DNA of 64,000 bases from Gammaproteobacteria bacterium (GTDB taxonomy: Bacteria; Pseudomonadota; Gammaproteobacteria; GCA-001735895). Location of the stretch: assembly GCA_050298595.1 (NCBI GenBank), contig JBNKUM010000094.1:160001-224000 (forward strand), given 5' to 3'. Of this stretch, positions 29,206-64,000 are shown one piece after another. The notes beneath the pieces are model-generated. The model was not told the origin of the DNA, did not search any database, and saw only the letters and a list, made by a program, of their open reading frames with translations. Position 1 is the first letter of the stretch, and every line of letters begins with the position of its first letter. The position numbers and the translations under genes were made by a program.

Positions 29206-29209
29206 TGCC

Positions 29210-30427: not shown

Positions 30428-30596
30428 CAGGCTGTGTGAAAACTATTTTCAATTTTTTAAAGTGGTTTTGAACAGTCTAAAACTGGCAAATGCTCATGCC
30501 ATTGTGGGTTTTATACGCTGATAATTCATCATTAAACTGGCTGGTGTAGGAAATATTTTTTGAATTTCATTTTTCTTTGAGTTTTTACACAGCCTG
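30428..30596. mobile_element. MITE with IS1182-like terminal inverted repeats
   Basis: CAGGCTGTGTGAAAACT and AGTTTTTACACAGCCTG form a 17-bp inverted repeat with one mismatch; further related ends at about 30352 and 29270. Confidence 0.65.
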
Positions 30597-30671
30597 TTGA
30601 CTTACCTGTCATTCCCTACGCCCTAGGGGTCAGGTCTAGCTTTTAGCCTATCAATCTGATAGTGTTTATCC

Positions 30672-30880
30672 ATGTCCAGACCTTTACGATTAGAATTCCC
30701 CGAAGCACTCTACCATCTCACCTCCAGAGGGGGTCGTCGTGAAAATATTTATGAAGACGATGAAGATAGCCTGGCTTTTCTAGAAGTGTTTTCATCTGTC
30801 ATCGAGCAGTTCAACTGGGTGTGTTATGCCTATTGCCTGATGAGCAATCATTACCATCTTCTGGTTCAGGCCCCCGATGC
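30672..30880 (+). pseudogene. Truncated REP-associated tyrosine transposase (RAYT), 5' part
   Basis: MSRPLRLEFPEALYHLTSRG...AYCLMSNHYHLL (HUH motif), cut by a GGGTCAG repeat. Confidence 0.85.
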
Positions 30881-30883
30881 TCA

Positions 30884-31641
30884 AATAACGAGGGTCAGAT
30901 ACAAATTAAAAATATCGCGCAGAATTTTGGGGTCACGTAAGGCTGTCAATTATGATTAGACCCAAGCTAAACTTTATAGCAATGTATTTAATGCATGCAG
31001 GGAATTCGAGAGACGGTTTACTAAATTCAACACCACTCGGGATGCGTTAGAGGAAATGTCCAGTGGACGTTTTCCTCCATGCATCCCCATGCCGTCAGAT
31101 CTAAAAATGATTTCTGTAGTGCTTTTGTGTTATCCGGTCTTGCTCATGATATCCAGTTCGTTTGAAATGGCCTGATTTTTTCTTATTAGGGTTCCCACTC
31201 TCATGTAGTCTTTTACTCCGGTTGCGATCATTATGCGTCAAATCATAGATGCGATGGCTGGCCAGGTTTAGCTTCCGTTTCAGTGTCTTTCGCTCAAATC
31301 GACTTAAGTGTCCATCCTTGTTGAATTGTCTGCTCAGAGTTTTTATGTGCCGGTGTTGTTTGCGTAGCTTATGGGCTTCTTTTTTGGTTAACTCACCCAT
31401 GCGAACCCCTTTATTGATGCGCTTATGCTGTCGTTCTATTCGGTCATCGAATTGTGAATAGCCACTATGATCAACGTGAGCCATTACCGGGTTTGAGAGC
31501 ACTGCTACCAGGGGTAAAACAAAAATAGTGTTAAAAAATTTCATAATTATCTCCAGTTGTTCATTCGGAAATTACTTTATGATTGATATACTGAATGGAT
31601 GCTGAACTGATAATCTTGTTCGGGGAAAAGCTCTGATTTAG
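30884..31641. repeat. Copy 1 of a duplicated segment of about 760 bp
   Basis: Colinear and highly similar to 35482-36240. Confidence 0.9.
31101..31544 (-). CDS. Secreted basic His/Arg-rich protein, copy 1
   Basis: Signal peptide; RQHKRINKGVRMGELTKKEA and DGHLSRFER repeats. Confidence 0.8.
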   Translation of the reverse strand: MKFFNTIFVLPLVAVLSNPVMAHVDHSGYSQFDDRIERQHKRINKGVRMGELTKKEAHKLRKQHRHIKTLSRQFNKDGHLSRFERKTLKRKLNLASHRIYDLTHNDRNRSKRLHESGNPNKKKSGHFKRTGYHEQDRITQKHYRNHF

Positions 31642-31861
31642 TTCTTAAGTGCCCCTTTTTTCCGGAAACATCTTGCTTTCAAGGTAGAGGCTTTGCCTAA
31701 AATCCATGGGAATTACTATTTACTTTTTTATTGGGTTTCGATTTCATGTTACTTGCCTGGAACTAAACCGGGTCGGACATAGGTAACTCCAGAAAGTGCT
31801 ACAGCATATGGGTGATGAGGTATAAAATGTGCGGATACCTAAAATACAGAAGTGATTAATC

Positions 31862-31950
31862 GCTAAAACTCTGACAGAGTATGAGAGAGTGACACCAGGA
31901 CGAGACGAGGAAATTGTGCAGGCGTATGCAAGCGGTATTCACTCTTATAT
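31862..31950 (+). pseudogene. RAYT C-terminal remnant
   Basis: AKTLTEYERVTPGRDEEIVQAYASG resembles the C-terminal HTH region of RAYTs; CTGACCC repeats follow. Confidence 0.45.
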
Positions 31951-31986
31951 GGCTGACCCTGAGACTCCTGACCTTGCGAGTATGTA

Positions 31987-32802
31987 ATGAACAAAAGTCC
32001 CGATCATTTAAATAATGCTTTGTTGAACGAAATCACTCTGGCTTTCAAAACGGCGGGTGTCAGAGTAGAGGACTTAAAACTTGAGGACCTGGGACGCATC
32101 GATGAATTTCATATTGGTGGTCGGCACGTCACCCACCTGATCACACAACAATTGAATCTCAGGGCTGATCAGCAGTTGCTTGATATAGGTTGCGGCATTG
32201 GCGGAACTGCACGTTATCTTGTCGATACCTATAACTGTGAGGTGACAGGTATAGATTCAAATTCCGAATATATTGCCACTGGGCAGACGCTAAATCACTG
32301 GGTAAAACTAGCAGATAAAATCGATTTAAACTGTTGTAACGCATTAGATCTGCCTTATGATTCAAATAACTTTGATTGCGCCTGTATGCTACATGTAGGG
32401 ATGAATATTGATGACAAGTCAACATTATTCTCAGAAATTTATCGTGTAATAAATGCGCAGGGAAAGTTGCTTATCTATGATGTGATGTTGACTGACTGTG
32501 CGCAACCAGAATATCCATTGCCCTGGGCTGATGATGCTTCAGAATCATATTTAGAAACACTTAACGACTATCTGAAACGATTAACTGCAGCAGGTTTTAA
32601 AATCGACAGGACGCAGGGCCATCGCGATACAGCTTTAAAAAGTATCAATGCATTGCGTGATTTCCGGCGCAGCAGTAATAAACCAGACATGCCGGGACTG
32701 GAGATACTCATGGGGCAAACCTTTTCTCAAAAGATTAGTAACTTGACGGCTGGTTTGACTGCCGGGTTAATTGCTCCGTTTGAAATAATTGCCAGTAAAT
32801 AA
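31987..32802 (+). CDS. Class I SAM-dependent methyltransferase
   Basis: DEFHIGG, LDIGCGIGG, HVGMNI, YPLPWA. Confidence 0.88.
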   Translation: MNKSPDHLNNALLNEITLAFKTAGVRVEDLKLEDLGRIDEFHIGGRHVTHLITQQLNLRADQQLLDIGCGIGGTARYLVDTYNCEVTGIDSNSEYIATGQTLNHWVKLADKIDLNCCNALDLPYDSNNFDCACMLHVGMNIDDKSTLFSEIYRVINAQGKLLIYDVMLTDCAQPEYPLPWADDASESYLETLNDYLKRLTAAGFKIDRTQGHRDTALKSINALRDFRRSSNKPDMPGLEILMGQTFSQKISNLTAGLTAGLIAPFEIIASK

Positions 32803-33569
32803 TCAGCAGCGCTAAAAAAAAATTTAATTGTCCATTGTTTAGAGGATATTATTGACTAATTTTTATTCCCTGTGAACAAGAATAAGGGGGCAGGTTTTTT
32901 GATTTAGGATCAACCTTTTTAAATATAATTAGACTCGTATACTTTAATAATATTTATTTTCCGGTCATTTTTTATTAGGTAGCTTGAAGCATTTAGACAA
33001 AATTTATGAAACTGTAATAAGAAATAGTTTGACATTAAAAAAATCGAAGCGTATTTTCAAAAATTAGAAAGCAGTCTTCATGGATCAAACAGGAAGTTAG
33101 TTTGGAAGTGCTCTGCAGTCTCTATGCAAAATAAATAATAATCGCATAAAGGCAGGGGGGTATTTATACAACAAGCCATATTGGGTATAGAAGATCAAAA
33201 GCTAGTTTTTCATCAGAGAAAATTGGCGCCCGAAATATTTCTAGTAAAGTCGTTGCCTCTCTTTTACATTAATTTGAGCAACCAAGGTTACCGTGTTTTT
33301 CAGTAGTGGCTCAGTATTTTTGCATTAGGCTAAAAGCTAGACCTGAGCCTGTTGTCTTCAATTCAGGGTGGATTGCCTGATGATTTTGTTAAAAAAATTA
33401 GGAATTGATACATCAAAAACATATGTGGATTTGTCCTCTGCAAAAGATGTTTTAAATAGACATACCCATATAGAAGAGAGAACTTTCTCATTATCAAAAA
33501 AAGAAATATACCTTCTCTCAGAGTAATGCCTTCAGGCCTTTGAAACATACATTACAATAATTGATGAAT

Positions 33570-33945
33570 GTAAAGAGAGGATTAGTAATAACATAATTGA
33601 TGAAGTAGATAGACACCTTAATTAATAAAGTTGTTTCCGGTGGAGTTGATGAAATTGGAGAAATAGCTACCCATAGCTGGTTTGATGAAATCTTAATTGA
33701 TTAGGTTGTCGTTGATAAAATATTGGCAAAAACAGTACTGCTAACAGTATTCGGAAATATCGGAGTAGGACTACAGTATGGATCTAATTCGGATGTAAGA
33801 GATGATATTGGTTACGTTACTTCAGACTCTTTCCCGTATAGAGCAAATGTTACTGTTGTAATGAAACGCCCATTAGGTTCGCATACTAAAGTAATATCTC
33901 TAAATGTAGATACAGATAGTTTTATGAATGAAAAATGTACTAACA
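33570..33945 (+). pseudogene. Decayed gene resembling the pPIWI-associating nuclease domain
   Basis: EIATHSWFDEI...GLQYGSNSDVRDDIG...DSFPY with stops and frameshifts; family recognised from memory. Confidence 0.45.
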
Positions 33946-33994
33946 ATCTGCTGCATAGGATACGCTCGCTCTTCTGTGAGTCGGGGCGTTAGAA
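33938..33994 (+). mobile_element. attC-like site
   Basis: CTAACAATCTGCTGCATAGGA...CTGTGAG...GGGCGTTAG between a gene end and the next gene start. Confidence 0.5.
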
Positions 33995-34026
33995 TTTAGG
34001 AACTACACATACTGGAAAAAATAAAA

Positions 34027-34995
34027 ATGAAAACGGTACAATACTTCTATTTCTTCACAATTGCCCTTAGTTCGTTAATGATGATATCAGGTTGTCAATC
34101 AGCTAGTATAGAAGAACCTGTGCCAGCTTCAGAATCCGAAGATCCCAGCGCAGCAACGAAAATCGCTATCTACAATTCTAAATTAAAGTTTGCTCGCCTG
34201 GGAAGTCAGGGGAATGACTATCCTGAAATAATTAACTTAATAAGAGCAGCGGAAGAAACTGCAGCAACTGGTGAGGAAGATCAGGCAATTATGCTGGCTA
34301 ATCTCGCAAGTACCAAGATCGATTTATTACTGATATCAGCTTCAAAAACAGGTTTAAAAACTGCACCAAAAATTGTGGAAACCCTATTACCGAGATTCCC
34401 TTGGCCTCCTCCTAAACCATCTTCGATGGTCGTACTCCCAACGGCTTTTTTTACACACGAATCTGGGAATGAACTTCTACTTTCTGATATTGATGAAAAA
34501 ATCCTGCGTGCTCTTGACTCTTCAGGATATGTAGAACGCAGTTATCACGGTATCTCTGATGGGTTCGTGTTGGTAACACGTTTAGAAGCATTTAATTCTG
34601 ATGGAACTCCAAAACTGGGGGATGATCGATGGTCTAAAGATGTTAAACCACTCAGCAATTTCACGTTAGCAGGATATCTCAAGGCTTTATTTACTAGCAA
34701 TCCTGGTTTCTTTAGGGTAATTGTTTTTGCTGTAACTCCTCACTCATTCAGTCCTGATACAAAAAAGGGAAAAGTAAGTCGACCCGAGGCTATAGATTGG
34801 ATTTCTAAAGGTGCAAATGTCTTACCAATACCTATAGCCAGCCAAAAGTATTCGAGTCACTATTCTTGTACCGCACTAGTTTATGAGTTCAAGAAAGAAG
34901 CGGTCGATAAAACTGCTAAGACAGAAGTTCCTGGTAGCTTACCCGCTAAAGTCCACCTTCAGAGATCAGGCATATGGCAAGGACTAAACCAATGA
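34027..34995 (+). CDS. Hypothetical lipoprotein
   Basis: Lipobox ISGC; conserved-looking C-terminal domain PRFPWPPP...GFVLVTRLE...YLKALF...FRVIVF. Confidence 0.8.
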   Translation: MKTVQYFYFFTIALSSLMMISGCQSASIEEPVPASESEDPSAATKIAIYNSKLKFARLGSQGNDYPEIINLIRAAEETAATGEEDQAIMLANLASTKIDLLLISASKTGLKTAPKIVETLLPRFPWPPPKPSSMVVLPTAFFTHESGNELLLSDIDEKILRALDSSGYVERSYHGISDGFVLVTRLEAFNSDGTPKLGDDRWSKDVKPLSNFTLAGYLKALFTSNPGFFRVIVFAVTPHSFSPDTKKGKVSRPEAIDWISKGANVLPIPIASQKYSSHYSCTALVYEFKKEAVDKTAKTEVPGSLPAKVHLQRSGIWQGLNQ

Positions 34996-35447
34996 CTAAA
35001 AAAATATCGATTTCTATTTGCAAAAAAAGGCTTGCTACTACATGGTTTGTAGGCGCAGGCATTCTCTTTCTTCTATTCTTTATCCAATCAGTTCTCGGTC
35101 GATTCTCTGATCGCATTATGGATGCATGGGGCTGGTTTTTGCCTAACCTAGTCCCAACTCTATCATTAATAATTGGTGTTCTGGTGTCAGAAACTATTAA
35201 AGATAATCAAAATAACAAAGAGATAGATCCCTTTATTTTTAAGCTAGCATTAGCTTTATCATATGCCTACTTCATTATTCTATCATCTACAATATTACTT
35301 AAGCCATTTAATAATTCACCACTAATAGAGTATCTAAACACTTCAAATTTATGGCTTGCCCCATTACAAGGTTTGGCTACTGCAGCACTAGGAGTTTTTT
35401 TTGTTAACGCTGAGAAAAATGAAGAATTAGACAAGTTAAGCAATTGA
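34992..35447 (+). CDS. Hypothetical membrane protein (about 4 TM helices)
   Basis: ATGA overlap with the upstream gene; AWGWFLPNLVPTLSLIIGV. Confidence 0.75.
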   Translation: MTKKISISICKKRLATTWFVGAGILFLLFFIQSVLGRFSDRIMDAWGWFLPNLVPTLSLIIGVLVSETIKDNQNNKEIDPFIFKLALALSYAYFIILSSTILLKPFNNSPLIEYLNTSNLWLAPLQGLATAALGVFFVNAEKNEELDKLSN

Positions 35448-35481
35448 TGACCCATAAAAATATCAGAGCGTTAAATGCCCG

Positions 35482-36240
35482 AATAACGAGGGTCAGAATA
35501 ACGAGGATCAGATACAAATTAAAAATATTACGCAGAGATTTGGGGTCACGTAAGGCTGTTAATTATGTTTAGACCAAAGCTAAACTCTCTAGCAATGTAT
35601 TTAATGCATACAGGGAATTCCGGGGACGGTTTACTTAATTTAACACTACTCGGGATGCGTTAGAGGAAATGTCCAGTGGAAGTGTTCCTCCATGCATCCA
35701 AATTTCGTCACATCTAACAATGATTTCTGTAATACTTTCGTGTTACTCGGTCTTGATCATGAAGTCGAGTTCGTTTGAAATGGCCAGAATGTTTCTTATT
35801 AGGGTTACCACTATCATGTAGTCTTTTATTCCGGTTGCGATCATTATGCGTCAAATCATAGATGCGATGGCTGGCCAGGTTTAGTTCCCGTTTTAGTGTC
35901 TTCCGTTCAAACCGACTTAAGTGTCCATCCTTGTTGAATTGCCTGCTCAGCTTTTTTATGTGCCGGTGTTGTTTGCGCAGCTTATGGGCTTCTTTTTTTG
36001 TCAACTCACCCATGCGAACCCCTTTATTGATGCGCTTATGTTGTCGTTCTATTCGGTTATCGAATTTTGAATAGCCACTATGATCATAGTGAGCCATTAC
36101 GGGGTTTGAGAGTACCGCCATCAGGGGTAAAACGAAAACAGTGTTAAAAAATTTCATAATTATCTCCAGTTGTTCGTTCGGAAATTACTTTATGATTGAT
36201 ATGCTGAATGGATGCTGTTCCGGGAAAAACTCTGATTTAG
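35482..36240. repeat. Copy 2 of the duplicated segment
   Basis: Matches 30884-31641. Confidence 0.9.
35714..36157 (-). CDS. Secreted basic His/Arg-rich protein, copy 2
   Basis: 147 aa close paralog of 31101-31544. Confidence 0.8.
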   Translation of the reverse strand: MKFFNTVFVLPLMAVLSNPVMAHYDHSGYSKFDNRIERQHKRINKGVRMGELTKKEAHKLRKQHRHIKKLSRQFNKDGHLSRFERKTLKRELNLASHRIYDLTHNDRNRNKRLHDSGNPNKKHSGHFKRTRLHDQDRVTRKYYRNHC

Positions 36241-50223: not shown

Positions 50224-50463
50224 GTCAGCGCCTGCTCAACAAATAGGAGCAATGGCATGACAGGTAAAGGAACTACAACGGGAAGCACTGGGGCCGTTTA
50301 AGCCTGAATAATCGCCAGTTTTCGGATAAAATATTTGTTTAAACAATAGCTTACTTTGGTCCATCCCTCTATGTGACTCAAAGATCTCAGTTAAAGCGAT
50401 GCGGGGTTTCTGTTATGGTTTCCCTGTTAGAAAATTCATGTCCCCAGGTGTTTAGAAAATAAT

Positions 50464-51453
50464 ATGAAAACAAGAATATTGGGTAAGTCTGGTTATGTGG
50501 TATCTGAAATAGGCTTGGGTTGCTGGCAGCTCGGTAATGACTTTGGCCCCGTGGAAGAGCAACAGGCTGCCGCAATACTGGACACGGCTGAGGACCAGCA
50601 GATTTGCTTCTGGGATACTGCCGATGTTTATGGTGCAGGTTTGAGTGAACGCCGTATTGGTCAATGGCTGGCCAGCTTGGGACCGAATGATAAGCGGCCA
50701 CTGGTGGCTACCAAAGTCGGGCGGGATGCCGCTCTTTATCCCGATGGATACACTAAAGCCAGGGTACGGACTAATTTACTTGGCTCGATTGATCGTTTGG
50801 GTGTGGAAGCGTTAGATCTGGTTCAGCTACATTGTGTACCTACCGAGATATTGATGGCAGGCGATATGCTGGACTGGATGGAAGACTTTCAACAGGAAGG
50901 GTTGATCAAGGCTTTTGGAGCCAGTGTAGAGAAAATAGATGAGGCTTTGTTCTGTGTTGAGCACCCTAAGCTGACCAGTTTGCAGATTCTATTTAATCTC
51001 TTTAGACAGGATGCTACCGAAGTTCTGTTGCCCAAAGCAGCAGAAAAAGAGGTAGGTGTTATTGTACGTTTGCCATTAGCCAGTGGCTTACTCAGTGGCA
51101 AGATGACCAAAGATCAGCAATTTGCAGCGGGAGATCATCGCAACTATAACCGTGATGGTGCCGCTTTCCATGTGGGAGAGACCTTTAATGGTATTCCCTT
51201 TGAAAAGGGCGTGGAGTTGGTGCAAGAACTGAATAGCTTTGTTCCTCAGGACATGACGTTATTGCAAATGGCCTTGCGCTGGATATTGGATCAACCGCAG
51301 GTGAGCACGGTTATTGCCGGTGCTAGTAAAGCTTATCAGGTGGAAAGCAACGCCGCTGCTTCAGCACTTCCACCTTTATCTGACGTTCTGCATCAACAAT
51401 TGCGGGCATTCTATTACGACAAAGTAAGAGACCAGATTCGGGGAGGGCTCTAA
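50464..51453 (+). CDS. Aldo/keto reductase
   Basis: GLGCWQLG, DTADVYG, LVQLH, PLASGLL. Confidence 0.92.
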   Translation: MKTRILGKSGYVVSEIGLGCWQLGNDFGPVEEQQAAAILDTAEDQQICFWDTADVYGAGLSERRIGQWLASLGPNDKRPLVATKVGRDAALYPDGYTKARVRTNLLGSIDRLGVEALDLVQLHCVPTEILMAGDMLDWMEDFQQEGLIKAFGASVEKIDEALFCVEHPKLTSLQILFNLFRQDATEVLLPKAAEKEVGVIVRLPLASGLLSGKMTKDQQFAAGDHRNYNRDGAAFHVGETFNGIPFEKGVELVQELNSFVPQDMTLLQMALRWILDQPQVSTVIAGASKAYQVESNAAASALPPLSDVLHQQLRAFYYDKVRDQIRGGL

Positions 51454-51507
51454 GAGCTAAAAGGACAGGTCTATCCTTTAAGACTTTCAAAATGATACGC
51501 TTTACTC

Positions 51508-57396: not shown

Positions 57397-59439
57397 ATGA
57401 AAAAAATGCTAATTTTACTGATGATTCTGTGGTGCTTGCCCGTCTGGGCTGAAGATCAGGTTCCCGGCGGTTTTATTGAAGCTGAACATCAGGGAAAGAA
57501 GATCCTGTTTCCATTATTGAAATCCCATTACCAGGTCGATATCCAGGGCGACCTGGCCCAGGTGACCCTGGAGCAGGACTTCCAGAATCCGACCGGTATT
57601 CCACTCAATGCCAGCTACCTTTTTCCCTTGAATAAGGACGCCGCCGTGCATGCCATGCACATGCAGGTAGCGGACGAACTGGTCGAAGCCAGGATTCGCC
57701 GCCGCGAAGAGGCCAGGAAAGCATTTGCCGAAGCTAAGGTGCAGGGTAAATCTGCCAGTTTACTTGAACAGCATCGCCCCAACATGTTTACCCAACAACT
57801 GGCCAATCTCATGCCGGATATTCCCATCCATATTACTTTGCAATATGTACAGCATATTAACCGGGTGGACAGCCACTATGAGCTAGTCTTGCCACTCATT
57901 GTGGGGCCCCGCTACCAACCGGAACAAACACAACAAAAGACCATCAAGCGAGTCGGCATGTGGCAGTTGGAGGCATTACCAGCCTATCCCTCAGTGGCTG
58001 GGCTGAACCTGCCCAAAGAAATTGAACAAGAGCGGGTGAGCATCGAGATTACTTTAGACGGTGGAATGCCTATCTCGGCTGTTTCCAGCCCGACTCACGG
58101 CATAGAGATCAAATCAGTGGATGAACAGCAAAGGCGCATCAGTCTTAGCAACGGTCGCACCATCGATAACCGGGATTTTGAATTGCACTACCGTTTAGCT
58201 GGAGAACGGGTACAGGCTGGTTTGCTGACCCATGAAAATGAGCGTGGCCGCTTCTTTAGCCTGTTACTGGAACCGCCAGCTATACCCCAGAGCGAGGCCA
58301 TCACCCCGCGTGAGATGGTGTTTGTGCTAGACACCTCTGGCTCCATGTCCGGTGACCCGCTTAAGGCCAGCAAAGCTTTCATGCAGCAGGTGTTGCACCA
58401 CTTGCGGCCCAGTGACCATTTTCGCATCATCGACTTCAGCAACAGTCCCAGGGAATTCCATGCCAACCCGTTGCCAGCAACCGCTGAGAATCTGCGTCTC
58501 GGTCAGGCTCATATCCAGGGCTTTAAAGCCGGTGGCGGCACCGAGATCGATAGTGCTATCAAGCAGGCCCTATCAGTACCAGCGATGCAAAACCATCTAC
58601 GCATCGTAGTATTTCTGACCGACGGTTACATCGGTAATGAGCACAGCGTACTACAACGCATCCAGTATTTGCGCGGTAATGCCCGTATCTATGCCCTGGG
58701 TGTCGGTACCGCTGTTAACCGCTACCTGTTGGATGAAATGGTGCGGGCAGGTCAAGGCTTTGTGCGCTATATCGACCCTACCGAGGAAGTGGAAGGTGCC
58801 GCCCAGCGCTTTGCAGAGCGCTTGCGTACGCCGGTGCTGACCGATGTTAGTATCGACTGGGGCGATACCAGGGTCGAGCAGGTCACACCTGCGCAGCTGC
58901 CTGACCTCTTTACCGGCGATTCTCTGCGTCTGCTGGGCAAGATCAAGCAGGTGGGTCAGAAGCCCATCAAAATTCTCGGACGCATCAATGGGCAGCAGGC
59001 TACTTTGCCGCTCAAACTTCAGTTCGATGAGCAAGCAGCAAATCAGGGCCAGGCGATTCCCCTGATCTGGGCCAGAAGCCGGATTGCCGATCATATGCGA
59101 GAAATGACGTTGCCGAATGATCGCCGCTCTTCGGAACTGCCTGATAAGGCATTGAAAGAAAAGGTGACCCAATTGGGGTTGGATTATTCCCTGATGACGC
59201 GTTGGACCGCTTTCATCGCCGTGTCGCAGAAGATCTACAATGAACAGCCCGCTGCGTCTAAGGATGTTTCGGTTCCCCTGCCCATGGTCAAGGGTGTCAG
59301 TCAAAAGGCCTATCCTAAACAAACTCAGCAGTTTCATGGCAGCTCAGCGCCGGAGGCTGAAGAGGGCCTGCTGTTGCTGATGTTGGTCTTGGCTGGGTTG
59401 TACTGGTGGCAGCGTCACCAGTATGGAGAAATGCTTTGA
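57397..59439 (+). CDS. VIT and vWA domain protein with a PEP-CTERM-like sorting signal
   Basis: Signal peptide, YLFPL, DTSGSM MIDAS, LTDG, C-terminal APEAEEGLLLLMLVLAGLYWWQR. Confidence 0.9.
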   Translation: MKKMLILLMILWCLPVWAEDQVPGGFIEAEHQGKKILFPLLKSHYQVDIQGDLAQVTLEQDFQNPTGIPLNASYLFPLNKDAAVHAMHMQVADELVEARIRRREEARKAFAEAKVQGKSASLLEQHRPNMFTQQLANLMPDIPIHITLQYVQHINRVDSHYELVLPLIVGPRYQPEQTQQKTIKRVGMWQLEALPAYPSVAGLNLPKEIEQERVSIEITLDGGMPISAVSSPTHGIEIKSVDEQQRRISLSNGRTIDNRDFELHYRLAGERVQAGLLTHENERGRFFSLLLEPPAIPQSEAITPREMVFVLDTSGSMSGDPLKASKAFMQQVLHHLRPSDHFRIIDFSNSPREFHANPLPATAENLRLGQAHIQGFKAGGGTEIDSAIKQALSVPAMQNHLRIVVFLTDGYIGNEHSVLQRIQYLRGNARIYALGVGTAVNRYLLDEMVRAGQGFVRYIDPTEEVEGAAQRFAERLRTPVLTDVSIDWGDTRVEQVTPAQLPDLFTGDSLRLLGKIKQVGQKPIKILGRINGQQATLPLKLQFDEQAANQGQAIPLIWARSRIADHMREMTLPNDRRSSELPDKALKEKVTQLGLDYSLMTRWTAFIAVSQKIYNEQPAASKDVSVPLPMVKGVSQKAYPKQTQQFHGSSAPEAEEGLLLLMLVLAGLYWWQRHQYGEML

Positions 59440-59567
59440 GGGTTTACTAAACCGGGTCGAGAATAATGTAGGTCAGATACAAATATATAAATATTGCGTG
59501 TACAAGACTCCAGTTATGTAGGTGAAAAATGCATGTTGATGAGGGGCACCCATTAAGGGGCAGGGGG

Positions 59568-60173
59568 TCAGGTTGAACCAGCGGCTATGACCCTGGATAT
59601 CTGCATCATTTTATCCTTTTCTTTTTGATCCAGATTTGAGTAGATCATCAAAATCTCCTGAAGATCATCTGGAAAGTAGGCGCATAGGCCATCTAGCTCC
59701 ACATGCTGTTCATCCATCCAGTTGCGGGATTTTTTTAGCTGCTTTTCGATTTTACGACATAATTTATCCTGAAGTTTCAGGAAGGGATTATCCAGGTGTT
59801 GCTTGAATTCTGAAGGTTTCAGCCCGGTAGTTTTTCTAAGTGCCGTGACTTCTGTTTTATTTAAAGATTTTACCAGTTGGCTCAGGTTCTGATGACGAAT
59901 AGCCTGAAGATCGCGCTCACCAGACCCTATGCTACCTAAACCAAACTGAATCCAGCAGGGATTAATTTTAGTGACTTCGGCTATCTTCAATATGTCCTGA
60001 GAGGCGGGCATAGAGATGCCCTGCTCATAGTTACCCAATCGGCTGACACTCCATTCAGGAGTCGCCTGTATAAATGCTGCGCGCGTCTTAAACCCCGCCA
60101 TTTGCCGGGCCTGTTTAATTCGTGCACCGACCTGTTTTCTAAAATCATCAGTAGTAGTATTTTTTTTGGTCAT
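59568..60173 (-). CDS. XRE family HTH transcriptional regulator
   Basis: GARIKQAR...RLGNYEQG...INPCWIQFG and a second HTH-like region RHQNL...CRKIEK...WMDEQH. Confidence 0.85.
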   Translation of the reverse strand: MTKKNTTTDDFRKQVGARIKQARQMAGFKTRAAFIQATPEWSVSRLGNYEQGISMPASQDILKIAEVTKINPCWIQFGLGSIGSGERDLQAIRHQNLSQLVKSLNKTEVTALRKTTGLKPSEFKQHLDNPFLKLQDKLCRKIEKQLKKSRNWMDEQHVELDGLCAYFPDDLQEILMIYSNLDQKEKDKMMQISRVIAAGST

Positions 60174-60181
60174 AATAAATA

Positions 60182-60238
60182 ACAAGAATCTTGTAATTAG
60201 TGGTTGACAGCTTGTAATGCTTCATTATACTACGCAGC
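60182..60238 (+). promoter_or_regulatory. sigma70 promoter of the tRNA/ncRNA array with candidate operators
   Basis: TTGACA 60204-60209, 16 bp spacer, TATACT 60226-60231; CTTGTAAT at 60190 and 60211; palindrome ACAAGAATCTTGT. Confidence 0.75.
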
Positions 60239-60267
60239 AATTCTTAATTCTGATTAATTTTAAAGGT

Positions 60268-60384
60268 ATGCATCATTTATTCATTTCAACGCAGAAGCAA
60301 CTCAGTATCAGCCCCCAGGCTGTGCCTATGTGTGAGTGGATATGTATATCTTTTGATAATGAGTATAAGACAGTAGATTTTTGA
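60268..60384 (+). CDS. Putative leader peptide 1 (38 aa)
   Basis: MHHLFISTQKQLSISPQAVPMCEWICISFDNEYKTVDF; stops just before attenuator 1; weak RBS. Confidence 0.45.
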   Translation: MHHLFISTQKQLSISPQAVPMCEWICISFDNEYKTVDF

Positions 60385-60393
60385 CTTTCTATT

Positions 60394-60470
60394 TTGGAAG
60401 GTCAATGGCACCTTCCGAGCAAAAATTAAAAACCCGGTTTGTGCTAAACAAGTCCGGGTTTTTTTATGCC
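60394..60470 (+). terminator. Attenuator 1 (alternative hairpins plus terminator)
   Basis: GGAAGGT/ACCTTCC stem; terminator AAAACCCGG...CCGGGTTTTTTT containing GTGC complementary to the upstream GCAC. Confidence 0.7.
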
Positions 60471-60545
60471 GGGAGAAAGGGAAACCAGAGATACTACATA
60501 ATTGACAAGGGGTGCTCTAGTTATTCACAACTAGAGGAATATGAA

Positions 60546-60659
60546 ATGTCTGTAAAAAACAAGACTATAGATAGAGAGCTCTATGGTTGTGTTAAAAGAA
60601 AATATATAGGGCCATGGTCAACATATTGGTTAGTGTTAACAGACCCTGGGTCAAGCTAG
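60546..60659 (+). CDS. Small ORF (37 aa) between the attenuators
   Basis: GAGGA RBS; MSVKNKTIDRELYGCVKRKYIGPWSTYWLVLTDPGSS. Confidence 0.35.
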   Translation: MSVKNKTIDRELYGCVKRKYIGPWSTYWLVLTDPGSS

Positions 60660-60829
60660 ATATGACACGGCCAGGAAGAAGGGAAAATAAATGTTGCTGT
60701 ATTGCAGTAACGAAGGGGAAGGATCCAGATGGTCTGGTATTCCCTTTGGGTAATCACCGACCCCATGAATATTACTGGTGAGTGACTGGCGTAATAAGCT
60801 ATTGAATAAATTTAGGAGCAAAGTTTTTA

Positions 60830-61006
60830 GTGAACATGTTATCGATAAATAGAGCTGTCTGGCCGGTGATTTATGTATCGCCAACAGCCCAGTTGCGCCC
60901 TGAGTTTATGGGCAAGCAGCTCTGTATATCCGCTCTGTATATAAGCAATGCGCCCAGGAACCTGGAACAGAATCATTTTGATTCAAAGGGTATTGGTAAA
61001 ACGTAA
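60830..61006 (+). CDS. Putative leader peptide 2
   Basis: AGGAG RBS, GTG or ATG start, MLSINRAVWPVIY...KGIGKT; stops before attenuator 2. Confidence 0.5.
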   Translation: MNMLSINRAVWPVIYVSPTAQLRPEFMGKQLCISALYISNAPRNLEQNHFDSKGIGKT

Positions 61007-61022
61007 TTCTCCATGAAAGTCC

Positions 61023-61110
61023 TTCGGAGGGTTGCAGTAATAACAAGCACCTCCGAGAGTTTAAAAAACCCCGGTTGTGCTTGAGAAGGCACCCGGGGTT
61101 TTTTTATGCC
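61023..61110 (+). terminator. Attenuator 2
   Basis: TCGGAGG/CCTCCGA stem; CAAGCAC/GTGCTTG antiterminator pairing; terminator AAAAACCCCGG...CCGGGGTTTTTTT. Confidence 0.75.
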
Positions 61111-61113
61111 CCC

Positions 61114-61148
61114 ACACCGGCGTTCCCGGTGTTAATGATCTTTGACAA
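61114..61148 (+). promoter_or_regulatory. boxB-boxA-like antitermination signal
   Basis: Hairpin ACACCGG-CGTTC-CCGGTGT followed by TGATCTTTGACAA (rrn boxA is TGCTCTTTAACAA). Confidence 0.6.
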
Positions 61149-61269
61149 TTTGGAATCACGCAATGCCACCGGGAAACCGGTGGCCGGGCGAAACACTGAA
61201 GTAATCAGTCAGTTGTTTTGTCGCGGACATTTGTCTGCGATATGTCGAACCCATCGACCGCCCACAACT

Positions 61270-61344
61270 GCAGATATAGCTCAATGGGTAGAGCGACGGC
61301 TTTCCTGGCCGAGGACCCCAGTTCGATTCCGGGTATCTGCTCCA
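61270..61344 (+). tRNA. tRNA-Gly(TCC), atypical
   Basis: Cloverleaf, loop TTTCCTG, U73, CCA; T-stem mismatch. Confidence 0.8.
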
Positions 61345-61424
61345 GATTCGCCTGCTTGCAGGCAAATGCCTGGCATTCTTGTCCCGAGATGCCGGTGCAG
61401 CGACACATCGGGTTCCCATGATGG

Positions 61425-62283
61425 ATAAGCCGGACATCCAGTGTAGTCGGCAGTGTCATCAGACCGCGTGAGGTCTTTACGATAATTGATGGCGACATCG
61501 AAAAAGGGGGAATGCCTGCATACCCTCGCCGGGGCAACTCGGTCGATTTACGCAAGCCCAGTCCTCTACGTCTTCGGGTCGCTCGGAGATACTGATAAAG
61601 GGATGCATGGTAATTAAGGATGCCGGGCGGCTAAAACCGTGGTATTCGAATGTTTTCGTGACTGTTAACGCCATGGGTCAACATCTCGTTTCAGGAGGGA
61701 TGAAGGGTGCACTTTTAGTCCGAGCCGTCAGGTTAGGGCGTTAGTGAAGTTTGAAGGGTGAGGGCAGTGGCCCAGATCCTGAAAAACGGTCAAGTAGCGG
61801 GATACGTGAAAGACATGGGGTGTGTGGCATTTTTGTCCTCAAAAGGGACTGGAACCACCGGAGTACGCACATCCTGGCAGGTTGTTGAAATAGCTCAACT
61901 GGTAGAGCAATTACCTCTTAAGTAATGGGTTTCAGGTTCAATTCCTGATTTCAAGGCAAACAGAAAATGGAAAGACGTACTCCAGCGTTAAGTGAAAGTG
62001 ACCTAAGTCTCGGCAGCTTGCTGAACCGAGAAGGGTTTGAGGCCCCAAGCCAATAACCCGGGTACCGAATCGCATCAATGGGCCGGACAGCTCAGAGAGT
62101 AGATGAAGTGCCGAGTAGCTTAGCGGTATGTAGGTATTGCCACCTACTCAAACAAGGCGGTTACGAAGGTTTACCATGATGCCAAGAAAGGGGGCATGGT
62201 GGATAAGCTGGGAAACAGCGGGTGGAACCGACTGATAATCCAGTGAAAGGATCTTCATAGAGGCTGTAATCTCAGGCCTTATT
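61425..62283 (+). ncRNA. Probable GOLLD-type large structured RNA with an embedded tRNA
   Basis: About 860 nt without a credible sense ORF, inside a tRNA array; 5' GCCGGACATCCAGTGTAGTCGGC and 3' CGAGTAG...TCAAA...GTGGATAAG...ATAATCC...GCTGTAATCTCAGGC resemble GOLLD ends from memory; boundaries approximate. Confidence 0.62.
61884..61956 (+). tRNA. tRNA-Lys(CTT)-like domain inside the large RNA
   Basis: Perfect D, anticodon (CTCTTAA) and T arms; 1:72 G-G mismatch; no CCA. Confidence 0.75.
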
Positions 62284-62285
62284 CT

Positions 62286-62361
62286 TCCCTGATGGCGTAA
62301 ATGGTGAACGTAGCTGACTGTTAATCAGAAGTTTCGGGTTCGAATCCTGATCGGGGAGCCA
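62286..62361 (+). tRNA. tRNA-Asn(GTT)
   Basis: Loop CTGTTAA, G73, CCA. Confidence 0.88.
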
Positions 62362-62367
62362 GATATT

Positions 62368-62451
62368 GGTTGTACTGAGCATTGGTGGGCTCACCTGGCT
62401 GTAACCCAGACTCCTCTGGACGTGATGGTTCGACTCCATCTGCAACCACCA
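62368..62451 (+). tRNA. tRNA-Tyr(GTA)
   Basis: Loop CTGTAAC, long variable arm, A73, CCA. Confidence 0.88.
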
Positions 62452-62565
62452 GACAAAAAAATCATGAGAGCAAACTGCAGACACTCTCGATATCGATTGA
62501 TAAAAGCGGCGTTGGCCGTGAATTATCCCCTGGCTAATTCCTGAAACGGCGAGGGTTAGATTTAT

Positions 62566-62642
62566 GCGTCCGTAGTATAACTGGATATTACACCGGACTT
62601 TTAATCCGGCTAATGCGAGTTCAACTCTTGCCGGACGTACCA
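62566..62642 (+). tRNA. tRNA-Lys(TTT)
   Basis: Loop CTTTTAA, CCA. Confidence 0.88.
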
Positions 62643-62648
62643 TTTTAT

Positions 62649-62723
62649 TGCTCTGTAGCTCAATGGTAGAGCCCCCGGCTGATAACCGGAAGGTAGTGGG
62701 GTCAGTACCCACCAGAGCAACCA
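62649..62723 (+). tRNA. tRNA-Ile(GAT), atypical T-loop
   Basis: Loop CTGATAA, T-loop GTCAGTA, CCA. Confidence 0.85.
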
Positions 62724-62798
62724 GTTTGTTATGTTCCCAGGCTCTGGACAAACGATATTCCTGCGAGCCAGGCTGCCCGACAATCGGGCTCAAATTAC

Positions 62799-62873
62799 AC
62801 TCCCGTGGATTAATGGTGAGATCGACAGACTTTCAATCTGTAGGTGAGGGTTCAATTCCCTTCGGGAGTACCA
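62799..62873 (+). tRNA. tRNA-Glu(TTC)
   Basis: Loop CTTTCAA, CCA. Confidence 0.88.
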
Positions 62874-62878
62874 GATAT

Positions 62879-62952
62879 GGGGTCATAGTTAAGTTTGGGC
62901 GAGTGCCTGTTTTACAAGTTGATTATTGCCAGTTCGATTCTGGCTGGCTCTA
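62879..62952 (+). pseudogene. Decayed tRNA with Ala-type body (G3:U70) and TAC anticodon
   Basis: Acceptor GGGGTCA/TGGCTCT, intact T arm, broken anticodon stem, CTG instead of CCA. Confidence 0.65.
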
Positions 62953-63091
62953 CTGAATGTGCCTACCTTGTTAGCTACAGGAAGGTCATCACACCACAGT
63001 CAGCACAGAGGGGGGCTGAATAGCAGCGAGGCTGCAAAACGGTGCGGTAAAAGTCCGAAGTTTCGTAACACAACAGTAACGGAGGTATCCA

Positions 63092-63262
63092 ATGAATCAC
63101 TATCGTAAATTTGAACGTGCAGTTCAGGATATGAATATCCCGAAAAACCGCAAGACTGCCAACCCAGCTAATGCGAGTTGGTTCTTAAGGTCAGGAGTAG
63201 CCTACAACCGTGATCACGACAAGATCATGACGGCGATATTCCATGCGCGCAATATTTCTTAA
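63092..63262 (+). CDS. Small protein (56 aa) inside the tRNA array
   Basis: GGAGG RBS; MNHYRKFERAVQDMNIPKNRKTANPANASWFLRSGVAYNRDHDKIMTAIFHARNIS. Confidence 0.7.
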   Translation: MNHYRKFERAVQDMNIPKNRKTANPANASWFLRSGVAYNRDHDKIMTAIFHARNIS

Positions 63263-63266
63263 CAAT

Positions 63267-63344
63267 GGTGGGTATAGCTCAGTGGGTAAGAGCGCCGGGT
63301 TGTGACCTCGGAGGTCATCGGTTCAAGTCCGATTATTCACCCCA
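63267..63344 (+). tRNA. tRNA-His(GTG)
   Basis: G-1, loop TTGTGAC, C73, CCA. Confidence 0.9.
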
Positions 63345-63410
63345 AACAAGGACTGCTTTAACTTCCCCCAGGGATTGGTGGATACAGACCCGGAGTTAAA
63401 GCACCAATTT

Positions 63411-63487
63411 ATCCTGATGGCCAAATTGAATAAGGCAGCGGTTTATGAAACTGGAGAATGCAGGTTTGACTCCTGCTCGGGATACCA
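63411..63487 (+). pseudogene. Atypical tRNA with ATG anticodon, probably decayed tRNA-Arg(ACG)
   Basis: Loop TTATGAA, Arg-like D-loop, T-loop TTTGACT, CCA. Confidence 0.65.
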
Positions 63488-63496
63488 AATCATTCT

Positions 63497-63573
63497 GCCG
63501 GGGTGATGGAATTGGCATACATGCTTGTCTTAGAAACAAGATTTTGCGGGTTCAAATCCCGCCCCCGGTACCA
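63497..63573 (+). tRNA. tRNA-Leu(TAG) with short variable loop
   Basis: Loop CTTAGAA, 5-nt variable loop ATTTT, A73, CCA. Confidence 0.88.
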
Positions 63574-63579
63574 GTTCAA

Positions 63580-63656
63580 TAGCGATTAACTCAGCTGGTT
63601 AGAGTGCCAACCTTACCAGTTGGATGTCGTGTGTTCGAATCACACATCGCTAACCA
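63580..63656 (+). tRNA. tRNA-Val(TAC)
   Basis: All stems paired, loop CTTACCA (C37 atypical), CCA. Confidence 0.82.
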
Positions 63657-63657
63657 C

Positions 63658-63734
63658 GGCAAAGTGGCTGAAATGAAAATGGCGCAAACCTCATAAGATT
63701 GAAAATGCCGATTTAATCCCGGCCTTTGCCTCCA
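63658..63734 (+). pseudogene. Degenerate tRNA-Met(CAT)
   Basis: Paired acceptor, loop CTCATAA, degraded D- and T-loops, CCA. Confidence 0.65.
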
Positions 63735-63740
63735 ATATTT

Positions 63741-63815
63741 AGCGAGATAGACCTAATGTTAGAGCACCGGGTTCATTTCCCCGAAGACCCGGTTTAGATT
63801 CAAAATTTCGCTCCC
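63741..63815 (+). pseudogene. Decayed initiator-type tRNA-Met(CAT)
   Basis: AGCGAGA/TTTCGCT acceptor, GGG/CCC anticodon stem, T arm destroyed. Confidence 0.55.
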
Positions 63816-63821
63816 GATTAT

Positions 63822-63899
63822 CTGGGTGTAGCTCAGTCTGGTCAGAGTTCTTGCCTTGGAAGCAAGATGCCGTTGGTTCGAATCCAACCACCCAGACCA
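63822..63899 (+). tRNA. tRNA-Pro(TGG)
   Basis: C1-G72, loop CTTGGAA, A73, CCA. Confidence 0.92.
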
Positions 63900-63904
63900 A
63901 ATAT

Positions 63905-63979
63905 GCGGATGTAGCTCAACGGTAGAGCATTGCCCTGTCAAGGCAGAGGTCGTGGGGTCAGTACCCATCATTCGCGCCA
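63905..63979 (+). tRNA. tRNA-Asp(GTC), atypical T-loop
   Basis: Loop CTGTCAA, T-loop GTCAGTA, G73, CCA. Confidence 0.88.
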
Positions 63980-64000
63980 GATTCTACGAAAGGAAAAGTC

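Follow-up and report, generated by a model that had tools for sequence, protein, structure and literature searches.

The stretch of gammaproteobacterial DNA analyzed here (64,000 nt, referred to as the window) carries a compact cassette at its right-hand end. Reading along the contig, the cassette consists of an XRE-type regulator, two leader elements that each combine a hairpin with an intrinsic terminator, a tRNA-Gly gene, a GOLLD RNA, a further 18 or so tRNA genes and, last, an HNH endonuclease (Table 1). GOLLD is the second gene of the tRNA array and lies directly between tRNA-Gly and tRNA-Asn. The whole array packs 18 tRNAs identified by ARAGORN, and two more identified by Rfam only, into 3.4 kb. 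It is also redundant: the genome encodes 39 tRNAs elsewhere, and these already cover 15 of the 18 array anticodons. Cassettes of this kind also occur in the genome G010, which we compare below with G000, and, in a more distantly related form, at a locus we call L006.

Table 1. Features of the cassette. Positions are those of the window, except where a contig position (C94) is given.
Feature	Position	Strand	Basis and remarks
XRE-family helix-turn-helix regulator of 205 aa, at the cassette's left end	59568..60185	-	Weak Pfam HTH_31/HTH_3; PHROG regulator/repressor families, E = 1e-7
Promoter-like site: TTGACA, 16-nt spacer, TATACT (11/12 matches)	60204..60231	+	Best in a scan of 59400-64000; a consensus match only, such sites being no more numerous in the scan than in shuffles
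Leader element 1: 7-bp hairpin followed by an A-rich tract and an intrinsic terminator with U run	60397..60466	+	Fold z = -4.99
Leader element 2: hairpin followed by an A-rich tract and an intrinsic terminator that has 15-nt arms and a U run	61022..61106	+	Inverted repeat I1; fold z = -4.84
19-nt box 3' of terminator 2, containing TTGACA	61141..61159	+	Read by eye, L006 has a near-identical box at the corresponding place; not aligned there by MAFFT
tRNA-Gly(TCC), first array gene, encoded CCA	61270..61344	+	ARAGORN; Rfam tRNA, 56.5 bits
GOLLD 5' domain	61345..61816	+	nhmmer and MAFFT homology to viral GOLLD 5' regions
First RF02032 hairpin, opening the conserved 3' region	61817..61877	+	cmscan, model 1-62
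Module resembling tRNA-Lys(CTT), within the linker of GOLLD	61884..61957	+	ARAGORN; Rfam tRNA, 61.8 bits
GOLLD 3' core, including the model pseudoknot	61958..62278	+	cmscan alignment
tRNA-Asn(GTT)	62286..62361	+	ARAGORN; Rfam tRNA model
Accessory tRNA array	62286..64000	+	ARAGORN/Rfam; continues to C94:224658, 658 bases past the window
HNH endonuclease gene, 239 aa, overlapping the array end	C94:224571-225290		Pfam HNH_5, 3.9e-15; PHROG HNH endonuclease, 5.8e-25

An earlier, sequence-only reading of this DNA had described the region between tRNA-Gly and tRNA-Asn as a hairpin-rich, non-coding stretch and had proposed that it encodes a GOLLD RNA. Both proposals are borne out. No Pfam family matches any of the five open reading frames overlapping GOLLD and the leading tRNAs of the array (61075-62956, both strands), and the intergenic stretch folds better than 20/20 shuffles (z = -2.49). 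A covariance search with cmscan matches the Rfam GOLLD family (RF02032) to 61817-62278 on the plus strand across the full model (1-416 of 416), with E = 5e-45 and a score of 166.7 bits that exceeds the gathering score of 150 by only 17 bits. The match is present on both sides of the tRNA-Lys(CTT) because the tRNA sits in the model's variable linker. Within the 3' core, the cmscan alignment retains the pseudoknot and most stems of the consensus. One hairpin (model ~246-264) is deleted, another carries a 17-nt insert, and about 17 pairs are flagged as non-standard. Given the marginal score, the missing hairpin and the non-standard pairs, the size of a cage oligomer cannot be deduced for this copy, nor is its assembly assured. 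The window's genome holds a single RF02032 copy; none of 14 control genomes has a match.

The complete RNA takes up the space between the two tRNA genes, running on the plus strand from ~61345/61373 to 62278-62285, a length of ~0.9 kb that leaves 7 nt between the end of the Rfam match and tRNA-Asn. Its start is 61345 if it abuts tRNA-Gly, or ~61372-61374, where two of the RNA-library contigs described below begin. The earlier bounds of 61425..62283 were right at the 3' end, to judge from the Rfam match, but the true 5' end lies some 50-80 bases further upstream.

The 5' domain is variable over 61345-61469, while 61470-61816 is common to phage GOLLDs and L006 and can be aligned to eight viral GOLLDs over their 5' regions. 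Three helices (22 pairs) emerge from this alignment; 88.6% of their cells are paired, compared with 63.6% in shuffles, a value reached by 0/500 shuffles, although the structure came from the very alignment used for the covariation test, which favors the result. Sliding the partners lowers pairing to 38-49%. Compared with L006, 11 of 92 predicted pairs in the 5' domain are compensated. Exact-word searches for close relatives of this domain yielded little: a 15-mer picked out 48 viral loci, none of which has a blastn match to the window RNA; a 19-mer degenerate at one position found no viral locus; and a 20-mer found two metagenome loci devoid of GOLLD, tRNA or blastn match. Since these words returned chance matches or nothing, either few members of this subtype are present in the collections searched or their sequence departs from the chosen words.

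The tRNA-Lys(CTT) enters the RF02032 alignment as an insertion after the first hairpin. According to ARAGORN, its D, anticodon and T arms are intact, and six acceptor pairs lie under a G1.G72 mismatch and a G-C-A-A-A tail that lacks CCA, which agrees with the good arms, 1:72 mismatch and absent CCA noted earlier from the sequence. It is an oddity within the array. CCA is encoded by 17/18 of the ARAGORN tRNAs, and the embedded tRNA is the sole exception. GOLLD linkers can hold tRNAs (Kretsch 2025), and 6/66 of the viral GOLLD loci we collected have one by ARAGORN, with one more by Rfam. In two of these loci (L092 and L139), the linker tRNA is again a tRNA-Lys(CTT). Linker tRNAs in three viral relatives do have CCA, and those of L096, L117 and L144 span 3-68 of the Rfam tRNA model. 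Judging from these CCA-bearing relatives and from its own Rfam score, the embedded tRNA might possibly be processed in some molecules.

Upstream of the array, the regulator is transcribed divergently from the RNA genes. It has 255 homologues, the named ones being gammaproteobacterial, and is 51% identical to its counterpart at the same position in L006. A search for its relatives on viral contigs gave 137 pattern matches, none of them confirmed, by a method that reaches only relatives keeping two short peptides. Between the promoter-like site and the array come the two leader elements, which are paralogous. Element 1 is kept in L006 and, genome-wide, is found only at this locus. Element 2 is also kept in L006; between G000 and G010 it is 99.1% identical, compared with 88% for the spacer that precedes it. 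Downstream of the second terminator, the 19-nt box is a candidate promoter element or operator, a possibility suggested by its sequence; on reading what follows it, we saw no acceptable -10 hexamer.

The sequence-only reading called this context attenuator-controlled. Part of that description survives, namely the two conserved hairpin-plus-intrinsic-terminator units in front of the array, and in this the locus resembles trp/thr leaders and the T-box, which also place intrinsic terminators between promoter and structural genes. The rest does not. In two genomes, both elements fold as an upstream hairpin and a separate terminator, and no segment in these folds is complementary to the terminator arm, as an antiterminator would have to be. 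Nor is there a conserved leader peptide: the small open reading frames differ between G000 and G010 mostly by amino-acid-changing substitutions and are unalignable with L006. No Rfam leader or riboswitch matches 60400-61270 at E <= 1. With no terminator/antiterminator switch, conserved leader peptide or Rfam leader found, classical attenuation is unsupported here. In L006, weak sub-threshold matches to Thr_leader fall on or near its terminator-like hairpins.

How did the cassette come to be here? GOLLD is found in 4/14 genomes of the genus, two of which have it as contig-end pieces, and in 0/65 other genomes of the order. The cassette occupies three different chromosomal sites in G000, G010 and L006, flanked by housekeeping genes (across the three genomes, a ribosomal protein operon, gidAB, MCP and PBP1C). 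G000 and G010 share just 7.4 kb of DNA here, which begins exactly at the 3' end of the regulator and ends at gene ends, and we saw by eye no direct or inverted repeat at the cassette borders of the kind that marks att sites or the ends of mobile elements. The cassette is horizontally acquired and patchy in its distribution. It looks phage-derived, on the strength of its relatives in viral contigs and its HNH family.

The closest GOLLD relatives are indeed on viral contigs, where 17/20 of the pattern-selected loci that we scanned reach the gathering score. Of these 17, the seven nearest to the window copy score 159-199 bits, as it does itself, while typical viral members reach 270-316. Viral GOLLDs also keep company with tRNAs: at 39/66 loci, tRNAs lie on the same strand at a distance of up to 1.5 kb, and in 10/17 of the loci with a downstream tRNA the gap from the GOLLD 3' end is <=30 nt. 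Among 50,697 phage records there is no close DNA relative, blastn of 61200-64000 giving tRNA-sized matches only. The HNH endonuclease has 35 relatives on viral contigs, and its best sequenced ones are in jumbo phages. As a marker of tRNA arrays this family fails, an array (31 tRNAs) being present at only 1/35 of the viral loci; no tRNA is annotated near the HNH relative at the two best sequenced phage matches or at Marinimicrobia loci.

Such viral connections are what make an ordinary prophage the first alternative to consider. Array and GOLLD would then reside in an integrated phage or its remnant and be expressed in the lytic cycle, as in Lactobacillus brevis. The likeness of the regulator to PHROG phage repressors points the same way, as does the literature, which usually places GOLLD in phages and prophages (Kretsch 2025). 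The neighborhood argues otherwise. We scanned 56 open reading frames of the window (chosen from 112 of >=80 aa, plus one short one) and 11 in the first 18 kb downstream, on a draft genome whose contig extends only ~30 kb further, and encountered no phage structural, packaging, lysis or integrase family. Within those frames, the non-phage context proposed earlier holds. Add to this the shortness of the shared DNA with its gene-end boundaries, the housekeeping flanks in three genomes and the lack of att-like repeats, and a resident prophage becomes unlikely. The window copy shares with the phage tRNA islands that bear GOLLD or ROOL its tRNA neighbors and an occasional linker tRNA, tRNA-Lys(CTT) included; it differs from them in having no phage genome around it.

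The next alternative comes from L006 itself. Here, the 5' domain stands alone and runs directly into tRNA-Asn, and nowhere in the genome does RF02032 match at E <= 1. With a 5' domain existing apart from the 3' core, it is not a given that both halves always function together in a single RNA, and cryo-EM has the 5' and 3' regions as separate domains (Kretsch 2025). Could the locus make two or three products, a structured 5' RNA, a working tRNA-Lys(CTT) matured from the linker (the tRNA does score well against Rfam) and a separate 3'-core RNA? RNA-library contigs from four studies speak against this. At 817, 884, 1057 and 751 nt, they correspond to 61374-62190, 61372-62253, 61416-62451 and 61613-62363, respectively, and all four bridge the tRNA and both domain borders unbroken, with the proviso that such libraries can contain DNA. 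The contigs are silent on strand, ends and level, and DNA carried into the libraries may be their source. Also against separate products are the G1.G72 mismatch and the missing CCA of the embedded tRNA, together with a mycobacterial precedent, the passages of Behra 2019 (PMC6582537) on a GOLLD tRNA cluster reporting that the product of its embedded pseudo-tRNA went undetected. Moreover, L006 resembles a deletion of exactly the tRNA plus 3' core, with the first hairpin truncated. Taken together, we find separate products very improbable.

The same contigs bear on whether a transcript exists at all, since the sequence-only reading had named the lack of a stable one, together with the lack of a GOLLD covariance match, as grounds for abandoning GOLLD. 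Contigs of 751-1057 nt were recovered from RNA libraries in four studies, DNA in the libraries being a possible source. One of them continues through tRNA-Asn and tRNA-Tyr, which leaves release of GOLLD by tRNA processing as something we infer. In the four RNA runs used, out of 12 listed, no contig covers 59400-61371, and this carries no weight on silence of that region, on the promoter or on DNA carry-over.

A last alternative, that GOLLD is a decaying pseudogene, functionless in its host and carried along with the transferred tRNA array, appeals to the score barely over threshold, the lost hairpin and the L006 relative without an entire 3' core, yet is scarcely credible in view of the RNA-library contigs, the conservation of the RNA and a compensatory change among natural variants. 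Between G000 and G010, identity is 99.3% in the GOLLD 3' core, 100% in the linker and tRNA and 97.5% in the 5' domain, above that of the protein genes on either side (regulator, 95.3%; HNH, 95.4%). The compensatory change, 61818 G>A with 61874 C>T, co-occurs in 3/4 RNA-library contigs and in G010, and turns a G-C pair into A-U. As viral members of this subtype have similar scores, the low RF02032 score is a trait of the subtype rather than a sign of decay.

We conclude, with a probability of roughly 0.88, that the window encodes a genuine full-length GOLLD, comprising a 5' domain, the first hairpin of the 3' region, a tRNA-Lys(CUU)-like module in the linker and a 3' core, within a transferred accessory cassette. 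It agrees with the family in its full match to the model, its two-domain build (variable 5', conserved 3'), the position of the linker, the tRNA neighbors and the size range. Where it departs from the family is in belonging to a divergent, low-scoring subtype, with one model hairpin absent and one extended, and in being chromosomal without a recognizable phage.

Accessory tRNA arrays with GOLLD and HNH in Mycobacterium are reportedly the subject of a 2020 paper by Morgado. A transferred mycobacterial tRNA cluster with GOLLD, an embedded pseudo-tRNA and HNH has been described, and its GOLLD RNA was detected (Behra 2019, PMC6582537; Behra 2022, PMC9569102). The parallels with our cassette are close: a large, redundant, transferred tRNA cluster; GOLLD with an embedded tRNA or pseudo-tRNA; an HNH gene, where the likeness is the presence of the gene and not a sequence comparison of the two proteins; and even a rare tRNA-His(ATG), present in both (PMC9569102). 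The differences are that ours belongs to another phylum and also includes an XRE regulator, transcribed divergently, and two leaders that carry terminators; the passages of PMC6582537 and PMC9569102 on these clusters describe neither the regulator nor the leaders. With the trio of GOLLD, tRNA array and HNH in print for Mycobacterium, and linker tRNAs known, the window copy is another member of a known arrangement.

What might the RNA do? GOLLDs are among the largest bacterial RNAs without a known function, and the cage structure published in 2025 did not reveal their role. Solved by cryo-EM, the cages are a 14-mer (env-38) and a 12-mer (Streptococcus agalactiae), with the linker inside (Kretsch 2025). 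The window RNA would be made as part of the array transcript and freed by tRNA-processing enzymes, with RNase P acting at tRNA-Asn and the other end coming either from maturation of the tRNA-Gly 3' end or from cleavage near 61372. The embedded tRNA, with its G1.G72 mismatch and no CCA, would be a poor substrate for processing and stay tethered. The RNA would then close into a homo-oligomeric cage like those solved, with linker and tRNA module inside. Our best guess is that the cage works on behalf of the tRNA cassette, or of phage tRNA biology, by sequestering a tRNA-shaped module or presenting one.

A more ambitious reading, which we regard as doubtful, is that sulfur-cycling Gammaproteobacteria have taken from phages a self-contained tRNA reserve, gated by the repressor and mobilized by the HNH endonuclease. 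GOLLD would then be modular, its 5' domain able to work alone, as in L006, and the tRNA plus 3' core an add-on for caging a look-alike of tRNA-Lys that cannot be cleaved. On this same doubtful footing, the caged look-alike could serve, for example, as a protected decoy or a protected store when tRNAs come under attack, whether from anticodon nucleases or otherwise. Were it true, the cassette would provide a switchable, host-side setting in which to test GOLLD function without a phage. The organism is known from metagenome assemblies only, so experiments are limited to heterologous expression.

For now, the window copy adds a clean example of GOLLD outside phages and outside the Actinobacteria and Firmicutes. 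It comes with a dedicated regulator, terminator-bearing leaders and environmental RNA-library contigs in which the linker tRNA is uncut. None of these additions alters what is known of GOLLD in kind. L006, with its 5' domain only, offers a natural dissection of the two GOLLD domains.

By its sequence, the RNA between tRNA-Gly and tRNA-Asn is predicted to be one full-length GOLLD. With cmscan and Rfam 15 the family model RF02032 aligns to 61817-62278 on the forward strand, over positions 1-416 of 416, at 166.7 bits against a gathering score of 150 (E = 5e-45), and no other non-tRNA family in the 64-kb window passes its own gathering score. The first hairpin of the model falls at 61817-61877; a tRNA-Lys follows as an insertion in the variable linker, and the core with its pseudoknot then reaches 62278. 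The sequence-only reading had proposed a GOLLD carrying this tRNA, and the covariance match does lie on both sides of it, hairpin before and core after. One model hairpin (about positions 246-264) is missing, another is lengthened by a 17-nt insert, and the alignment marks about 17 pairs as non-standard. RF02032 is single-copy in the genome and matches none of 14 control genomes. A motif of the GOLLD 3' region retrieved 66 loci on viral contigs; 17 of the 20 scanned passed the gathering score, and the seven passing loci nearest to the window GOLLD score much as it does (159-199 bits), typical members reaching 270-316. The 941 bases separating the two flanking tRNAs fold with lower energy than 20 of 20 shuffles (z = -2.49), and no Pfam family is matched by the five ORFs, from both strands, that lie across GOLLD and the array's first tRNAs, which bears out the earlier description of a hairpin-rich non-coding stretch.

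Because the Rfam model is restricted to the conserved 3' region, we analysed the 470 bases upstream separately. By nhmmer and MAFFT, 61470-61816 is homologous to the sequence that precedes the 3' domain in viral GOLLD relatives. RNAalifold on an 11-sequence alignment gave three helices of 22 pairs, 16 with compensatory changes. In these helices, derived from the same alignment, the paired fraction of cells is 88.6%, compared with 63.6% in shuffles, none of 500 being as high, and sliding the partners drops pairing to 38-49%. Further upstream, 61345-61469 is variable and includes a small copy of a hairpin motif from the 3' region (repeat D8, 61417-61433 versus 62195-62211). From where the upstream tRNA stops, it is 934 nt to the GOLLD 3' end; the corresponding interval at 12 viral loci is 731-1295 nt. 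The start first proposed, 61425, was 50-80 bases too far downstream.

The 5' domain also turned up by itself. In a Thiotrichaceae MAG (JAGLEV010000037.1; L006:6347-6690 of the fetched locus) it heads an 11-tRNA array without the 3' core: a homologue of window 61497-61830 leads into a shortened first hairpin and linker and then directly into tRNA-Asn, with the embedded tRNA and the entire 3' core absent. RF02032 has no match at E <= 1 at this locus or in the rest of that genome. Of the 92 pairs predicted, comparison of the two 5' domains shows 11 compensated and about 10 broken. This single case may reflect either a clean deletion or a 5' domain able to act alone.

A word index of public runs gave 20 with part of 61100-62400, 12 of them metatranscriptomic, and we compared four RNA runs from four studies with 59400-64000. 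Being assembled contigs, these data speak to presence and continuity only, not to strand, ends or level, and library DNA is possible. Each run has one long contig on GOLLD, with 7-18 differences apiece from the window, and all four cross the embedded tRNA without a joint. Two contigs start two bases apart (61372 and 61374), immediately past a small hairpin at 61359-61372, a weak hint of the GOLLD 5' end; two stop no more than two bases from the tRNA-Asn and tRNA-Tyr 3' ends. Strain differences in GOLLD are as expected of a folded RNA. In three contigs and in G010, another genome of the genus, 61818 G>A is accompanied by 61874 C>T, so that a G-C pair of the first hairpin becomes A-U; 61526 T>C changes G.U to G-C, and at 61714 a T>A change re-forms a pair where the window has U.U. 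The window genome (G000) and G010 are 99.3% identical in the 3' core, 100% in linker and tRNA, 97.5% in the 5' domain and 95.3-95.8% in the genes for the regulator, HNH endonuclease and aldo/keto reductase. In one RNA run (X8), record 10 (689 nt) matches the window only at 61808-61833 and 61928-61949; it is a diverged relative of this part of GOLLD whose linker tRNA has another body, and it occurs in that same library.

Features of the cassette, its RNA-library contigs and regulator paralogues (window coordinates unless prefixed)
Feature	Position	Strand	Source or remark
Promoter-like site TTGACA-16-TATACT	60204-60231	facing array	strong consensus match
Paralogous leader unit 1	60397-60466		between promoter-like site and tRNA-Gly
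Paralogous leader unit 2	61022-61106		between promoter-like site and tRNA-Gly
tRNA-Gly(TCC)	61270-61344	+	ARAGORN; Rfam tRNA model
tRNA-Lys(CTT), inside GOLLD	61884-61957	+	ARAGORN; Rfam tRNA model
tRNA-Asn(GTT)	62286-62361	+	ARAGORN; Rfam tRNA model
tRNA-like gene	62879-62952	+	Rfam only, missed by ARAGORN; 33.3 bits
tRNA-like gene, apparent CAT anticodon	63658-63731	+	Rfam only, missed by ARAGORN; 40 bits
RNA-library contig 1	61374-62190		817 nt
RNA-library contig 2	61372-62253		884 nt
RNA-library contig 3	61416-62451		1057 nt
RNA-library contig 4	61613-62363		751 nt
XRE regulator paralogue L198	G004:C1:49662-50207		48% identical; three divergently oriented tRNA genes beside, no GOLLD
XRE regulator paralogue L199	G012:C13:47756-48301		48% identical; three divergently oriented tRNA genes beside, no GOLLD

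ARAGORN finds ten further tRNAs from tRNA-Asn to the window end, all on the forward strand, and 18 array tRNAs on the whole contig, the last ending at C94:224658. The array is redundant, since 39 tRNAs elsewhere in the genome cover 15 of its 18 anticodons. Its embedded tRNA-Lys has regular D, anticodon and T arms and six acceptor pairs below a G.G at 1:72, a drawing that agrees with the intact arms, 1:72 mismatch and missing CCA noted from the sequence; the other 17 of 17 ARAGORN array tRNAs encode CCA. The tRNA at 63411-63487 reads as His(ATG), whose anticodon is unusual, and this rare isoacceptor is also listed for mycobacterial genomes (PMC9569102). A 56-aa ORF in the array (63092-63262), with no Pfam or PHROG family match, contains a 26-nt piece that shares 81% identity with a portion of tRNA-Lys(TTT) (repeat D3) and is probably a decayed tRNA rather than a gene.

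Among the 56 window ORFs scanned, 15 have no match, and the Pfam-matched ones are genes ordinarily found on chromosomes (PriA, ArgS, MutY, formate dehydrogenase, NapC/CymA and exosortase, for example), IS200 transposase fragments in a low-GC island being the exception. The genes downstream of the array encode an HNH endonuclease, an aldo/keto reductase, pilins, alpha-2-macroglobulin and PBP1C. Among the window and downstream ORFs scanned, none matched a family of phage structural, lysis or integrase proteins. GOLLD is present in four of 14 genus genomes (G000, G010, and contig-end pieces in G001 and G011) and in none of 65 other genomes of the order. G000 and G010 have exactly 7.4 kb in common, from the regulator gene 3' end to the aldo/keto reductase 3' end, and the genes on both sides differ. 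A third, more distant cassette, in L006, has its parts in the same gene order: regulator (51% identical), both leader elements, array and HNH gene (62% identical). Its neighbours are bioB-gidAB on one side and the rplQ-rpoA-rpsD operon on the other. Judged from the assemblies, what we see is therefore a small cassette capable of transfer, found at differing chromosomal sites, and not a prophage, in keeping with the non-phage context suspected at the outset. Parts of it have phage relatives: the nearest GOLLDs are on viral contigs, as are 35 relatives of the HNH endonuclease, whose best sequenced matches are in jumbo phages (42% and 37% identity). An array-specific HNH family is ruled out, a tRNA array being present at only one of these 35 viral loci. 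Two aldo/keto reductase genes (50381-51460 and C94:225904-226983) flank a 14.5-kb segment that takes in the cassette; they are 92% identical over 1080 bp, and the second copy accompanies the cassette in G010.

Each leader unit upstream of the array combines a hairpin with an A-rich tract and an intrinsic terminator that has a U run, and the genome has no further copies. Both are kept in L006 although the surrounding DNA is unalignable; identity between G000 and G010 reaches 99.1% in element 2 and 88% in the spacer before it, and a 19-nt box downstream of terminator 2 is near-identical in L006 as judged by eye. Leader units and box are real, module-specific signals. The sequence-only reading had called the context attenuator-controlled. 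Conserved, terminator-bearing leaders are indeed there, but attenuation found no backing: no segment can pair with a terminator arm, the small ORFs before the units differ in close strains mostly at the protein level and have no relation to those of L006, and the leader region matches no Rfam leader family. The regulator's family numbers 255 proteins, and its named members come from sulfur-oxidising Gammaproteobacteria. Of five paralogous loci in the genus, in the 10-kb stretches fetched, two adjoin three divergent tRNA genes and three adjoin none; the family may often be a companion of accessory tRNA clusters.

The window GOLLD is conserved and of the phage-borne subtype, and RNA libraries contain it with the tRNA in its linker uncut. 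It lies directly between two tRNAs, 7 nt from the next; of the 17 viral loci with a tRNA downstream, 10 have it no more than 30 nt past the GOLLD end. GOLLD would be transcribed together with the array and freed by RNase P at tRNA-Asn and by tRNA-Gly 3' processing or a cut near 61372. The embedded tRNA, because of its G1.G72 and missing CCA, would resist processing. In three viral relatives the linker tRNA matches the Rfam tRNA model at positions 3-68 only, and three of six viral linker tRNAs found by ARAGORN have no CCA; at two of these three loci all flanking tRNAs have it, and the third has no flanking tRNA. A mycobacterial embedded pseudo-tRNA gave no detectable product in the work described (Behra 2019). 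By homology with the env-38 and S. agalactiae GOLLDs, which form closed homo-oligomers with the linker inside (Kretsch 2025; 2026 RNA Biology review), the window RNA may do likewise; its stoichiometry is not predictable, because the peripheral helices differ. Published speculation on the role runs to storage or shielding of a tRNA-shaped module (Kretsch 2025; 2026 RNA Biology review).

Linker tRNAs, a tRNA neighbourhood and the cage are already established features of the GOLLD family. A trio of tRNA array, GOLLD and HNH endonuclease in Mycobacterium was reportedly noted by Morgado in 2020. Mycobacterial accessory arrays are like the window cassette in combining these three on a chromosome, where the trio is described as transferred (PMC6582537; PMC9569102). 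In open-access full text we found no published proteobacterial cassette of the three. As far as could be seen, what is new is the host group, a dedicated XRE regulator together with its pair of terminator leaders, the RNA contigs from environmental samples and the relative with only a 5' domain.

Two unrelated observations concern the rest of the window. A 514-aa ORF at 11262-12806 (+), between a SPOR-domain gene and DUF2333, matches T6SS_VipA (residues 31-123) and VipB (209-492), a fused sheath-like protein with no other secretion genes seen nearby. The low-GC island (0.37-0.44; 27670-36200) follows tRNA-Phe and contains, with the IS200 transposase fragments, a methyltransferase and a pPIWI-associated nuclease fragment (33723-33992).
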